DNA from: Escherichia coli
GTDB taxonomy: Bacteria > Pseudomonadota > Gammaproteobacteria > Enterobacterales > Enterobacteriaceae
DNA: 64,000 nucleotides
NCBI RefSeq assembly: GCF_044324875.1
Contig: NZ_CP172185.1
Direction: 5' to 3' (one strand)
The position numbers and the translations under genes are program-made. The notes under the pieces were generated by a model. The model was not told the origin of the DNA. It saw only the letters and a program-made list of their open reading frames with translations, and did not search any database. Each line of letters starts with the position of its first letter. Position 1 is the stretch's first letter. This document shows, one piece after another, positions 57,393-63,987 of the stretch.

Positions 57393-58055
57393 AAAAACCC
57401 CATATTCGTGGTTTTTCTGTGTCGGGGCTATTCTGCTGTTGCCGTGCTGGTGGATATTCTCCGGTATGCGGCTCCCCATATCGGCATCAGGCCCACCAGC
57501 GTGAAGCGTTTTTCATTTTTCGCGGGTATAAAAAATCGATGGGGCGGGCAGTCCTGAAGACGTCAGGGTACAGAGATTTGACCCGCCCCTCCCTGTGAAT
57601 GAGCACAATAAGTAACCGAAGGCGGAATTCCGCCCTCGGTACTTACATATGAGAAACGATATTTCTTCCACCGATACCCTTTATTTGGGTATCGCGAGTA
57701 AGCCCCAAAATCTGGGTGTTACTCTTACTACCCAAACTACGGGTAGTTTCCGTAGTTTCATGGTCGAGTTGCAAATCTGCAACTCACCCACCAGCCAGCG
57801 CAATGTCGCATTATCAGTCCTCAGATGTGAGGGATGTAGCCAGCTTTTCCCCCAGTGGGGATTATCCAGTTACCGACGGTTTAACCGCCTGTGCCAGCAC
57901 AACGAAAGAATTTGCGGGTAGCTTTAAACTACTCACAACATCCCATCTTACAGGCCGTGCCTTTCTAACTTTTTACAATGCAATAAGTCAGGTAACGCTA
58001 TGCGTTCCACCGTGTACACCGCGCCAGTAAAACCCCCGGATTCGTGGTTTTCCTG
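57393..58055. repeat. Low-coding segment bracketed by two copies of a 27-bp hairpin-capable direct repeat
   Basis: AAAAACCCCATATTCGTGGTTTTTCTG (57393-57419) and AAAACCCCCGGATTCGTGGTTTTCCTG (58029-58055). Confidence 0.5.
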
Positions 58056-58067
58056 AATATCAGGAAT

Positions 58068-58442
58068 CTACCGCCGCAACCGTTCCGGCTTCTTCCACTG
58101 ATAAGTGTTTTTCGCGCTCTCCCTCCGTTGTTGAGAACGGCGACGGTATGCCAGCAACTCAAGGACTCTGGTTCGTATGTTGCGCATATCCACGCCGTTA
58201 AGCTCAATACCATCACGGCGCATCACCTCAGCAACAACACACGCGTAATTTTCGGCTATCACGCTGTCCGGCTGCGTGGCCTCCTGTTCGCCAGCCTGCT
58301 GGCTGATTCCGGTAATACTGCGGATTATCCCGATCGCTTCGGTCTCGGTCATGGTCATGTCCTCCATAGTGATGGCGGGTCCTCCTTGTGGGGTGCCCTG
58401 CCACGGGGCGGGAGCATCGCGGAAAAAGGCTAGTTTTTGCAT
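58068..58442 (-). CDS. Hypothetical island protein downstream of the TerS-like gene
   Basis: 124-aa ORF co-oriented with the packaging gene; start uncertain. Confidence 0.35.
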   Translation of the reverse strand: MQKLAFFRDAPAPWQGTPQGGPAITMEDMTMTETEAIGIIRSITGISQQAGEQEATQPDSVIAENYACVVAEVMRRDGIELNGVDMRNIRTRVLELLAYRRRSQQRRESAKNTYQWKKPERLRR

Positions 58443-58603
58443 TTTTATTCGTTATCACCACCAATGCAATATATTGATATGACTTGATGTTTTATTTTTC
58501 GGTGTCGATTTCGATTGTTTTTTGTTCATCACTGACGCATAACGCCCACCAGCGCAACGCTGAAAGCCAGTCAGTAAACTGGCTTCGGTCATTGTGCACT
58601 ACG

Positions 58604-59188
58604 TTACTTGTCTTTATCCGGCTGAAACTTATCAGGCACATTTCCGGTAGTTTCCATCAGATAATCGGACAGCATTCGCGGGATGTTTTCATCAAGTTTT
58701 GTGCATGCGTTACAGGCTCTGACAACTTCTTTTTTCAGGCCATCCAGCATGGCGGGGGTCATCTGTGGGAAGCTCCTTTGCATAGTAAGCGGGAGGCTGT
58801 CCATGATTGATGAAATCTGTCTCGCCAGTTTTGAAAGCGCGTACATGCAAAACTCTGTATCAATCACGTCACCGCGATCGCGCTCGTTTTTAAGTTCCTG
58901 CGCATCTGCCTGTGCTTTTGTGAGACGGTAGCGTTCGTAATCAATCGTACCGGGCTGCAGATCCGACTCAGCAGCCACGCGCATATCGTCGACTTCCTTA
59001 CGAAGTTTTTCATTTTCAATGTCGGCCTCACGCTGAGCGAACCACTCAATCGCTTTTCCCGTATCAAAAATCGCTTCATTCCCTTTCCCGCCGCCTGATA
59101 TCAGCGGCAGCCCCTGATTTTGCCAGGTGGATATAGTCCGCACATCAACATCAAAAATCTCAGCCAGCTTTTTCTTGTTAACCCTCAC
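58604..59188 (-). CDS. Lambda Nu1-like terminase small subunit, not followed by a large terminase gene
   Basis: MRVNKKKLAEIFDVDVRTISTWQNQGLP...GGGKGNE...IENEKLRKEV...DLQPGTIDYERYRLTKAQADAQELKN closely parallels recalled lambda Nu1 (MEVNKKQLADIFGASIRTIQNWQEQGMP...). Confidence 0.8.
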   Translation of the reverse strand: MRVNKKKLAEIFDVDVRTISTWQNQGLPLISGGGKGNEAIFDTGKAIEWFAQREADIENEKLRKEVDDMRVAAESDLQPGTIDYERYRLTKAQADAQELKNERDRGDVIDTEFCMYALSKLARQISSIMDSLPLTMQRSFPQMTPAMLDGLKKEVVRACNACTKLDENIPRMLSDYLMETTGNVPDKFQPDKDK

Positions 59189-61420: not shown

Positions 61421-61428
61421 GTCTAAAA

Positions 61429-63177
61429 CTATAAAAACGCGTCGCAGTCGTCTGTTGTTGTCACGTTGGTTTGCGTAACCCCTTTAATCCTGCGCGTTAT
61501 ATATTCATGTCCGTAAACTTTCGCCGCTGGCTTCATGGCCTTGCTGAACTCAGCCACGTTCAGCGGTTTGCTCCTGCCTGCGTATGCCATAAACGCCAGA
61601 TAGACGCGGTACAGGCTGTTTCTGGTCGTGTACTTCACGGAATCGCCACCGCCACCCATCATCAGGCCACGTGCTTCCTCCAGAAAATTCAGGAACTGGC
61701 AAAACTCAATAACCGGATCCGTTTGCTGCTTTATCGCCAGTGCTTCATCACCGTCACGCTGTTCCAGTAGTAAAGCCCGCGCCTTTTCAGGGTCTGCAAA
61801 GTTCGCCAGTAATCGGCGGATAATGACGGGGATTTCAGCCGCAATCCTTTCCGGTAGCTCCCTGTCTTTTTCAGCCTCACTGACGATATTGTCGAAACGA
61901 AAAATCACGCGACGACGTGCCACACCTCCGGCCCGTTCGGTGAATATCATCGGGTTATTGTTGGTCGCCAGCACCACCGCCCTGATTACAGCCGTGAAAC
62001 GCTTTTCGTATTTCGGGTTAATTTCCACGGGGTCACCGCCCGTGATTTTCTTGATGCCCGTTCCTTCGCCTGTATATTTCGGCTGGTCTGCCAGGACGAT
62101 AAGACGACTCCCGACAACCTGCGCACGCCCACCAGCATCATCAAGCGATGTCATCTCAGCACTTACCGTGTTCTGTTTCCCTGCCAGAAGGCTGGCTATG
62201 TGTGTGAATGTACTTTTACCGCTCCCGCCGTCTCCGGTGGCCTCAATAAACATCTGCCAGTCGTACCGGTTCGCCATAATCATGTACAGCGCGGCACATA
62301 TACGCATCATCTTGCGCGGGTCTTTTCCGGCTGCGTGCTCAAGCCATTTATGAAAGTTTGGCGCGTTATCGCGGATGTTCTCCCCAGGTGCTGGTGGCGT
62401 GTACTCAATGCCGTTGTGCGTGGTGATCCAGTTCTCCGGCGTGTGCGGGGAAAATTCCCCCGTTTTCAGGTCAAGCGCACCATTGGCGAACGGCAGCAAA
62501 TCGCCGGACGGCTCGCCCATTGGTTCGGCAATAACTTTTAACGCTTCCACGGCGTTACTGATTACGCGCTTGCTGAAAGTGGCCCTGTGCTCTGAATAGA
62601 TCGCCACCATTTCGCGGCTCAGTTCCATTGTGCTGACCGGACACCATACCCCGCCGCGCCATACGTGAACGATTTCACTTTCCGGATGCACACAAACGCC
62701 ATCAAATCGACCAGCAAGCATCTGTGCGCGCTCACTGTCTGCCATTTGTGCCAGTTGCGTATTTTTCTGCTCCGGCATGGTAAGCCCTGCAGCAATATTT
62801 TCACGCTCAGCATTCAGATAACGCCGCCAGTTTTCACACTTCTGACCGTGCATTCCTTCGGGGTAAAAATTTGCGTCCTGTACGCCAGCCGCCGCCAGCT
62901 TCTGACCAATCGCCTTTATCATTACTGGCGCAAGATATCCGGCCCTGAATATACGCACGGATTTTCTGCCTTCCGGCACAATTTGCAGCTTATCCAGTTC
63001 GGATAACTGCTGCTCCCCAAGCCACACAGGAGGCTCATTATCTCCGGCCATACGCGCGTCATGTTCCTGCCATTGTTTCGCGTGTGCCCAGGCATCACTA
63101 CCCGCAAAAATAATGACTTCAGTTCCTTTGTGTTTTATGCCGCGTGACTGCAGTTTTACGTTCGGTGCCAGTTTCAT
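61429..63177 (-). CDS. Phage/plasmid-type primase-helicase (Pri-Rep-like)
   Basis: 582 aa with Walker A GDGGSGKST in the C-terminal half; followed by iterons. Confidence 0.7.
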   Translation of the reverse strand: MKLAPNVKLQSRGIKHKGTEVIIFAGSDAWAHAKQWQEHDARMAGDNEPPVWLGEQQLSELDKLQIVPEGRKSVRIFRAGYLAPVMIKAIGQKLAAAGVQDANFYPEGMHGQKCENWRRYLNAERENIAAGLTMPEQKNTQLAQMADSERAQMLAGRFDGVCVHPESEIVHVWRGGVWCPVSTMELSREMVAIYSEHRATFSKRVISNAVEALKVIAEPMGEPSGDLLPFANGALDLKTGEFSPHTPENWITTHNGIEYTPPAPGENIRDNAPNFHKWLEHAAGKDPRKMMRICAALYMIMANRYDWQMFIEATGDGGSGKSTFTHIASLLAGKQNTVSAEMTSLDDAGGRAQVVGSRLIVLADQPKYTGEGTGIKKITGGDPVEINPKYEKRFTAVIRAVVLATNNNPMIFTERAGGVARRRVIFRFDNIVSEAEKDRELPERIAAEIPVIIRRLLANFADPEKARALLLEQRDGDEALAIKQQTDPVIEFCQFLNFLEEARGLMMGGGGDSVKYTTRNSLYRVYLAFMAYAGRSKPLNVAEFSKAMKPAAKVYGHEYITRRIKGVTQTNVTTTDDCDAFL

Positions 63178-63473
63178 TTTTTACCCCTGAATCCGTTAAT
63201 CATGGTTTTCATCTTCTGAATATTGGCGCGTGCTTTCTCCCTGCTGGTGGGCACGTTACGCGGTACGGCCTGCACAAGAGAAAAATCACGCACAAACTGA
63301 TAAACAGGCATCACGCAATCATATTCGTAACCTTCATGGCGGTAGGTGATGCGCCGTTCTGCCACGCCTTTAATCGTTACCGTACCGCCGTAGTTATCAC
63401 GGAAAATATAGCCGGGACGGATTTCAGGCCGAGCGAGGCCGCTGGCAGTAAAGCCAGAATTTTTCTTTTTCAT
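63174..63473 (-). CDS. Hypothetical island protein
   Basis: 99-aa ORF translationally coupled upstream of the primase. Confidence 0.4.
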   Translation of the reverse strand: MKKKNSGFTASGLARPEIRPGYIFRDNYGGTVTIKGVAERRITYRHEGYEYDCVMPVYQFVRDFSLVQAVPRNVPTSREKARANIQKMKTMINGFRGKK

Positions 63474-63669
63474 GGTTTTATTTTCCTGTCAGTGATTCCG
63501 GCTTTATTCCGGCGCGAATACAGGCTTCAGAAAAAAAGCCAGAGAACCAATAACCTCATTATTTCTAAGGCGGCATTGCGATTTCACTTTCCCTTTATCC
63601 AGAAATATCAAAACGCGCCCCGTATAATCAGATGGCACATTAAGCACTACAGGTAAGTGCGCTTCATGA

Positions 63670-63987
63670 TTATTCATGGCTAACCACCTCCTGGAATTTT
63701 CTTCTGTAACGCGCCTCTGCCACATATTCAGCATAGTCCGACGCAATATTGAGAATATCGCTACCCGTTCCTGAATGTTCGGCGGTTTCCAGTAAAAAAC
63801 ATGCAGCTTTTACCATGTCAGCAACACATAACAGCGCAATATCTGTATCTTCCGGTGTGCCATCAAATTCCTGTTTCAGGGCATTAAAACGATCATCACG
63901 CATAACCCCATATTCACAATCAGCAATCAGGATGGCTTTGGCCTCATTCAGTGCCATATTAGCGGTAAGCTGTGCGTAGGCCAGCAA
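63670..63987 (-). CDS. Hypothetical island protein
   Basis: 105-aa ORF co-oriented with the island operon. Confidence 0.35.
   Translation of the reverse strand: MLAYAQLTANMALNEAKAILIADCEYGVMRDDRFNALKQEFDGTPEDTDIALLCVADMVKAACFLLETAEHSGTGSDILNIASDYAEYVAEARYRRKFQEVVSHE

Follow-up and report, generated by a model that had tools for sequence, protein, structure and literature searches.

The satellites called phage-inducible chromosomal islands (PICIs) carry genes for virulence, regulation and defence from one enterobacterium to another and also interfere with temperate phages. For PICIs of Gram-negative bacteria that are packaged at cos sites, only the Rpp and the capsid-forming routes have been worked out. 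The experimentally studied model is EcCICFT073 (Fillol-Salom 2018, 2019). Rpp proteins, of 144–153 amino acids (aa), have a winged helix-turn-helix (wHTH) fold in common with the small terminase subunit (TerS), lack its C-terminal part that binds the large subunit (TerL) and act solely as heterodimers with the helper TerS, on a single-R cosB unlike that of the phage (PMC6739421, PMC9026076). TerS itself is already listed among PICI core components (PMC6092414, PMC10085698), SatelliteFinder counting a small terminase as one of five (PMC10085698), and the 2018 study marked an element of IHE3034 (RS04635-RS04640::cat), which it called a TerS-encoding PICI (PMC6092414). In the literature searched we found no name for the IHE3034 element, and for TerS-encoding PICIs no identified helper or demonstrated packaging mechanism. 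Here we describe a 64,000-nucleotide (nt) stretch of an Escherichia coli chromosome (contig NZ_CP172185.1; hereafter the window), the end of which is likely to be the clpS-proximal two-thirds of a ~10.6-kb PICI of the EcCI family with a lambda-type cos site and a TerS of its own. The element is of an ordinary, already described kind, as PICIs with a Nu1-type TerS and without TerL are known and common. What it adds is a precisely bounded swap of packaging specificity from a prophage to this satellite, together with a parental twin that lacks it; a prophage-to-satellite swap of such a cassette was not found described in the literature searched.

The cos region is organized as in lambda (Table 1). 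The search for a lambda-type cos site that the initial annotation of this region had proposed returned the exact lambda cosN inside the island, 193 nt upstream of the terS start (179 nt in lambda) and with the flanks GTTACG and CGCG, as in lambda. The neighbouring GGGTCCT resembles lambda cosQ in sequence and position. On the other side, three copies of AGATCC(G/T)TTCT lie at +53 (R3), ~+107 (R2, inverted) and +154 (R1) from cosN, in the same register as in lambda, and an A+T-rich spacer within cosB occupies the position of lambda I1. A strict IHF consensus had no match in the R3–R2 spacer, and an I1 site is therefore not claimed. When the region is aligned with lambda, a 21-like phage, PhiR5_1 and three PICIs, one block proves conserved, GGGTCCTTTCCGG...GTTACG-cosN-CGCG, equivalent to cosQ and cosN together; downstream of it, the cosB sequences are lineage-specific.

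The island carries a cosB of a phage lineage, joined to the first half of a phage TerS. Between positions 59386 and 58893, a single base in 494 bp separates the island (99.8% identity) from the cos-Nu1 segment that complete, 21-like lambdoid prophages carry in strains NRZ14408, 135 and others; in these prophages, the genes continue as Nu1-A-W-B-C-D-E-FI and the C-terminus of Nu1 is 21-like. TerS residues 1 to ~99 are 81–90% identical to PhiR5_1 Nu1 and 27–37% identical to the TerS of the IHE3034 PICI. Residues 100–194 are of PICI type: they are 95% identical to the IHE3034 protein over residues 100–140, end in the same 13-residue extension and are at most 54% identical to any phage; at the nucleotide level, the 3′ half of terS is 84% identical to IHE3034 PICI terS. 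Upstream of cosN position 6, the island sequence is PICI-type. The donor-type prophages have the cosN variant GGGCGTCGACCT, a G6T change relative to lambda (NRZ14408 prophage locus 9001-9050; a second prophage likewise), whereas the cosN of the island is canonical, so that the left crossover maps within this site.

Parental islands without the phage segment exist in Br_112_kylling (locus 7605-8400) and LH50-c. Their backbone is 99.0–99.5% identical to that of the chimeric island and they carry an ordinary 180-aa PICI TerS and a PICI-type cosB, and the comparison confines the replaced segment to 58917-59376. The crossovers lie in two conserved stretches, cosN and the segment coding for AQADAQELKN. 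As read from these junctions, a cassette of ~0.46–0.49 kb passed recently from a prophage to the PICI by homologous recombination.

The protein encoded downstream of this cos site is a complete small terminase. The Phage_Nu1 family (PF07471) covers it over model positions 1–161 of 164, and its residues 3–180 align with lambda Nu1 at 54% identity. In a PDB search, residues 1–98 match lambda TerS (6HN7_B) at 1.7e-40 and RppC only at 0.008; identity to RppA is 30% and confined to 47 wHTH residues. The initial annotation had matched a Nu1 homologue without TerL to the Rpp strategy. Only the position supports this match, as terS occupies the exact rppA slot of EcCICFT073, between cos and the conserved last open reading frame (ORF); the protein is a full-length, 194-aa Nu1-family TerS that keeps its C-terminal region. 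The island thus departs from Rpp systems in protein length and domain make-up, in its sequence relationship to RppA/B/C and in lacking a single-R3-type cosB, and its strategy is closer to that of a satellite bringing its own TerS.

The C-terminal half of this TerS (residues ~100–194; 58604-58900), which carries the 13-aa C-terminal extension, appears to be a satellite lineage. Its best phage counterpart in 50,697 phage records is 54% identical, and among weaker matches in 5,426 E. coli genomes every inspected one was another PICI and none a prophage. Of 5,426 complete E. coli genomes, 791 contain the 3′ half of the island terS, within a PICI wherever the context was inspected; these include the O157:H7 island at roxA-phoQ, the EcCICFT073 site. 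TerS-encoding islands are thus found in ~15% of complete E. coli genomes, with O157:H7 O-island 51 (OI-51) among them, which the 2018 paper relates to the island at the EcCICFT073 site (PMC6092414). A dN/dS of 0.21–0.26 indicates purifying selection on the PICI-type half of terS.

Complete copies of the island place these features in a PICI. The 7-kb stretch in the window is 99.9% identical to the complete chromosomes TUM1886, TUM9803 and ECCNB12-2; with the exact TerS protein as query, eight further assemblies with the island were retrieved, and ten complete copies were read in all. Their right part adds ~3.7 kb beyond base 64000, in the order Icd-like ORF, YlcI/YnfO with a small opposite-strand ORF, an AlpA-family regulator (PF05930, 4.5e-16) next to int and in the same orientation as the other island genes, and the tyrosine integrase, followed by yljB-cspD. 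The overall order is int-alpA-...-DUF4222-pri-ori-hyp-SSB-PerC-ProQ-cos-terS-orf94, then clpS, and no TerL, portal, capsid, tail or lysis genes occur in the ten copies. The full length is 10,580 bp in TUM1886, within the PICI size range of ~10–20 kb. A capsid-forming PICI (cf-PICI) was considered and rejected, the gene content including no capsid, portal, protease, TerL or head-tail connectors.

The insertion point of the island is the 3′ end of yljB, in the stretch that separates clpS from cspD. The chromosome in the window reads cydD-cydC-aat-infA-serW-clpA-clpS, with clpS at 56724-57044 and, unlike in K-12, without cspD next to it. Aligned to the empty K-12 site, homology ends at 57150, and K-12 positions 773-794 are duplicated at both insertion ends. 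The attachment (att) core at the left border is accompanied by two AACTACACC repeats that recur beside int and are probably arm-type integrase-binding sites. With int, AlpA, att, Pri-Rep, iteron origin, cos and terS in place, the classification as a satellite or PICI-like island in the initial annotation is borne out. So is its prediction that the integrase end lies outside the window, where AlpA and the tyrosine integrase lie close by in near-identical copies, and its view that the large terminase is absent, the copies running through terS and orf94 straight into clpS. The att sites that it suggested looking for appear as a 20-bp repeat against the K-12 empty site, and the two outcomes that it had named as refuting, TerL or structural genes beyond the window and a lack of integrase or att site, are both excluded. 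Its start coordinate, 57393, is too far in by ~250 bp, because the att core (57127-57146) forms the left end of the island.

That start was probably set by a 27-nt direct repeat, 85% identical (AAAACCCC..ATTCGTGGTTTT), at 57393-57419 and 58029-58055. The repeat was rejected as an att repeat because both copies lie at the clpS end. The two copies bracket ~600 bp of non-coding DNA between attL and orf94, with a strong hairpin inside at 57615-57640.

Chimeric islands are nearly invariant on divergent chromosomes. Among nine genomes and the window they differ by 1–5 bases in 6.86 kb (0.01–0.07%), with 11–43 differing bases in the 2.7 kb of flanking clpA-clpS (0.4–1.6%) and 1–3% divergence in infA-cydD; at least four flank haplotypes surround the island. 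Recent horizontal spread, combined with site-specific integration, would account for this pattern. Public contigs with the exact chimeric TerS number 657, and those with the parental TerS 481. The terS ORF is intact in all copies, and int, alpA, pri, ori, cos and both att sites are intact too.

From this anatomy we infer a life cycle that begins with a lambdoid helper phage, which would switch on AlpA, by homology with EcCICFT073. The island would then excise, Pri-Rep would fire the iteron origin and replication would yield concatemers, which the helper TerL would cut at cosN, placed there by cosB-bound TerS. The island would give TerS, and the helper TerL, proheads and tails. Because the island has no capsid-size gene and its 10.6-kb unit has to suit the lambda packaging window, about four units (42 kb) would be expected to fill a lambda-sized head. 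The swapped cassette would confer the cos specificity of the 21-like donor phage lineage, and since cosB and the DNA-binding domain equal those of NRZ14408-type prophages, such phages would be the best helper candidates.

Several observations weigh against this reading, in which the island's own TerS recruits the TerL of a donor-lineage helper. The distance of the TerS C-terminal half from lambda and from 21 is as great as that between these two phages, whose TerS proteins are mutually incompatible. Given this distance, and with no phage counterpart above 54%, direct binding to the helper TerL is an assumption. Complete genomes with the island all lack a donor-type prophage at 99% identity or more, and the sole prophage in the window is P2-like. 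The near-identity of the islands could in principle also stem from generalised transduction, or from conjugation and recombination, instead of PICI-specific packaging, and one small island gene (the phrog_340 ORF) is annotated as frameshifted in RefSeq copies. Finally, in the only test published so far, resident prophages hardly mobilised the TerS-type relatives in IHE3034 and 18098 (PMC6092414).

Two other accounts concern the nature of the element. That it is an ordinary lambdoid prophage remnant, a late-operon left end in which Nu1 was left after the loss of A and the head genes, is hardly credible. The prophage origin of cos and of the terS 5′ half is what such a remnant would show, yet the parental copy limits phage-derived DNA to ~0.46 kb, and the complete copies refute this account: the element measures 10.6 kb in all, with a P4/PICI-type backbone of int, AlpA, Pri-Rep and iterons and its own att site, lacks lambdoid immunity, replication, lysis and tail genes, and has the same architecture at several att sites in hundreds of genomes. 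We also give little credence to a decaying, immobile PICI relic that descends vertically after the loss of its capsid and decoration genes. Across at least four flank haplotypes, the divergence of the island is 10 to 50 times lower than that of the core genes beside it, EcCICFT073 transfer does not need capsid genes, and every mobility and packaging element listed above is intact, which outweighs the missing major capsid protein, decoration and 137-aa genes, present in most relatives, the one frameshifted gene and the poor transfer of relatives in the laboratory.

The remaining accounts accept a PICI and differ in what its TerS does. The helper's complete TerS–TerL might package the island by recognising its cos site, as with SaPIbov5 or a cosmid, leaving the chimeric TerS dispensable or a neutral by-product of where the crossovers fell. 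The 99.8% identity of cosB and the DNA-binding domain to the prophage's means that the phage TerS should recognise the island, and crossovers placed exactly in the two conserved stretches agree with a by-product. We nevertheless think this unlikely, as terS is open in all copies, its PICI-type half is under purifying selection, and the parental cosB, unlike any phage's and paired with a matching divergent DNA-binding domain, implies that the parental islands must depend on the TerS that they encode. Also improbable, to a similar degree, is an Rpp-like action, in which the island TerS would mainly mix with the helper TerS and divert or poison the terminase, the helper TerS bringing TerL. It finds support in the exact rppA position of terS, in the proposal by the Rpp authors that Rpp descends from TerS, in a C-terminal half for which no phage counterpart points to a matching TerL and in a DNA-binding domain identical to the prophage's, with which mixed dimers of this domain would be expected. 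However, the protein keeps a complete C-terminal region with homology to the TerL-binding part of Nu1, which Rpp lacks, and similarity to Rpp stops at the 47 wHTH residues.

Returning to the reading in which the island's TerS serves packaging with a donor-lineage helper, a broader proposal is possible, if tentative: E. coli PICIs may switch helpers, one such switch being recorded in the chimera, by trading the ~0.5-kb cassette of cosB and the DNA-binding domain of TerS with a lambdoid prophage that replicates alongside, and retain a satellite-only module at the TerS C-terminus. If so, this module would join Rpp and cf-PICI capsids as a third hijacking device in Gram-negative bacteria, acting as a broad-range TerL adaptor or a terminase poison, and the parental/chimeric pair would make a helper switch directly testable and name the long-missing helper of TerS-type PICIs. 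The general picture of PICIs is unchanged by this island. What it provides is a natural isogenic pair, with parental and chimeric cos/TerS, and a named prophage lineage with the same cosB and the same DNA-binding domain of TerS; with this pair and this lineage, it becomes feasible to ask which part of a satellite TerS selects DNA and which engages the helper motor.

Table 1. Features of the island and of the upstream prophage in the 64,000-nt window
Feature	Position	Strand	Description
attL core ACATGATAGATAACTATCAT	57127..57146	none	Imperfect 20-bp direct repeat of the int-side copy; left island border; overlaps yljB 3′ end
Two AACTACACC repeats	57221..57241 (starts 57221, 57233)	none	Also beside int at the other end (TUM1886 locus 22570, 22582)
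orf94	58068..58352	-	phrog_1561; conserved last gene of E. coli PICIs; 69% identical to EcCICFT073 last gene
terS	58604..59188	-	194 aa, GTG start; Pfam Phage_Nu1 PF07471, 3e-75
Swapped cassette	58893..59386	-	Right half of cosN, cosB, TerS DNA-binding domain and linker (codons 1 to ~99)
cosB	59228..59340	-	R3 AGATCCGTTCTT 59340-59329; R2 inverted 59275-59285; R1 AGATCCTTTCTT 59239-59228
cosN, exact lambda cohesive-end sequence GGGCGGCGACCT	59381..59392	-	Sole exact match in 64 kb
cosQ-like GGGTCCT	59416..59422	-	30 nt upstream of cosN, as in lambda
Terminator-like hairpin and T-run (intrinsic)	59432..59453	-	3′ of proQ/finO, ahead of cos
ProQ/FinO-domain protein	59476..60060	-	194 aa with RefSeq start; PF04352, 1.7e-26
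PerC-family transcriptional activator	60140..60460	-	PF06069, 1.1e-26
SSB	60478..60888	-	TIGR00621, 55.4 bits against a cut-off of 53.95; 79% identical to EcCICFT073 SSB
Conserved 85-aa hypothetical protein	60885..61142	-	phrog_1231; 89% identical to EcCICFT073 homologue
Replication origin	61143..61428	none	286 bp; ten GGTAGAGG-type iterons, both orientations; directly downstream of pri
Pri-Rep (primase/SF3-helicase type)	61429..63177	-	PHROG 864, E=1e-168; Pfam D5_N, DUF5906, Pox_D5
DUF4222 protein	63174..63473	-	99 aa; 74% identical to CFT073 c1493 (RgdR family)
Small ORF	63478..63746	-	phrog_340; frameshift annotated in RefSeq copies
'Icd-like' long ORF, C-terminal part	63670..64000	-	410-477 aa in complete copies; cut at window end
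P2-family prophage, isrK	4575-4650
P2-family prophage, C4 antisense RNA	4686-4773
P2-family prophage, gpA-like nickase	5541-8051
IS21-type insertion in P2-family prophage, IstB-like	8861-9859
IS21-type insertion in P2-family prophage, transposase	9633-11279
P2-family prophage, portal	13312-14367
P2-family prophage, large terminase	14367-16118
P2-family prophage, P2-type major capsid	17138-18277
P2-family prophage, tape measure	28155-31502

From attL to the window end, every convincing gene lies on the minus strand, and the gene order is syntenic with EcCICFT073 (Table 1). Profile searches back the gene list of the initial annotation in full, strand included. The origin contains an A+T-rich stretch at 61360-61400 (80% A+T), and the C-terminal part of Pri-Rep, which is 94% identical to the EcCICFT073 replication protein, is P4-alpha-like. 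The DUF4222 protein has PGY at the position of the RGD motif carried by the RgdR family, a regulator of the locus of enterocyte effacement and of motility (PMC3378721). Rfam had no match inside the island (E-value mode on 53000-64000; gathering mode on the whole window). PADLOC, run on ten island proteins with a cut-off of 0.001, recognised no defence system; its sole entry was a marginal mads_1 match to TerS residues 1–40 (E 6e-4), with no domain passing alone.

At tRNA-Pro, strain B771 carries a PICI that has a different integrase and replication protein and contains capsid genes, yet its PerC–ProQ/FinO module is 99.9% identical to that of the island; the module therefore belongs to a shuffling PICI gene pool. 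These genes do lie between the origin and terS, where the initial annotation had placed island cargo; they are not peculiar to this island, being common to other E. coli PICIs.

The last gene, orf94, is followed by ~0.9 kb of non-coding DNA, then attL and clpS. In E. coli PICIs of both the TerS type and the Rpp type, it is invariably the final gene. Pfam, PDB and PADLOC searches with it were all without match, and an AlphaFold2 model built from 8 homologues has three helices at low confidence (pLDDT 65.9); a small three-helix protein with a basic C-terminus is predicted.

Upstream of the island, between serW and clpA, are two type I-F clustered regularly interspaced short palindromic repeats (CRISPR; Rfam CRISPR-DR4, 50 and 30 bits) and an RtT element, at 54116-54203 and 53940-54074. 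The repeats form an orphan mini-array where IHE3034 has a complete I-F CRISPR-Cas. TUM1886 has an extra integrase-bearing island at serW (locus 7515-8723) that is missing from the strain of the window, so that strains carrying the PICI differ in their neighbouring mobile elements. Farther away, upstream of serS, a P2-family prophage occupies ~200-38500 of the window. It is no cos phage of the lambda type and is therefore not expected to be the helper of the island.

Among known systems, EcCICFT073 is closest in layout. Both elements begin with int/alpA, continue as DUF4222-pri-ori-hyp-SSB-PerC in identical order and close with cos, a packaging gene and a last ORF of 93/94 aa, and both have lambda-type cosQ and cosN. 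EcCICFT073, however, encodes RppA (144 aa, without a TerL-binding part), has a single-R cosB unlike the phage's, needs the helper TerS and carries capsid and decoration genes that our island lacks. Unlike it, the island has a full TerS, a phage-identical R3-R2-R1 cosB, a ProQ/FinO protein and a different att site.

The nearest relative by site is the IHE3034 element, which occupies the same clpS-cspD position, with an identity of 88% in the replication module and 97% in the 500 bp next to attL. It and O157:H7 O-island 51/CP-933C, both listed as PICIs (PMC6092414), encode TerS at the equivalent place, likewise with the PICI-type C-terminal half and its extension, and no TerL. In both, however, the TerS DNA-binding domain is divergent (27–35% identical to phage Nu1) and the cosB is GGTGG-rich and unlike any phage's, whereas those of our island are prophage-derived. 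Both also carry the major capsid protein, decoration and 137-aa genes of a capsid module that is absent from the island.

More distant satellites share single features. The pac-type Staphylococcus aureus pathogenicity islands (SaPIs) SaPI1 and SaPIbov1 likewise supply a TerS homologue and use helper TerL and capsids, but they are Gram-positive, headful-packaged elements whose TerS belongs to an unrelated fold family and is joined by Ppi as a second factor; our island has a lambda-type cos and no recognised Ppi-like gene. SaPIbov5-type cos SaPIs carry the helper's cos site, but SaPIbov5 lacks TerS and uses Ccm for capsid resizing, whereas the island has TerS and no capsid homologue. With cf-PICIs and P4-like satellites it has in common the integrase, AlpA-type regulator, primase backbone and helper dependence, but none of the TerL, portal, protease, capsid and connector genes of the former or the Psu, Sid, Delta and Eps of the latter.

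On the phage side, the island shares with the lambda-like Nu1-A operon the order cosQ-cosN-cosB before a Nu1-family TerS, but not the overlap with gpA or the head genes. The lambda-21 hybrid terminases (Frackman et al. 1985, summarised in PMC9026076), which defined the TerS domains, have a natural counterpart in the chimera: in both, the DNA-binding half of TerS comes from one lineage and the TerL-binding half from another, the two meet mid-protein, and cosB goes with the DNA-binding half (PMC9026076). Those hybrids, however, are phage–phage and were made or selected in the laboratory, whereas the island is a natural prophage–satellite hybrid.

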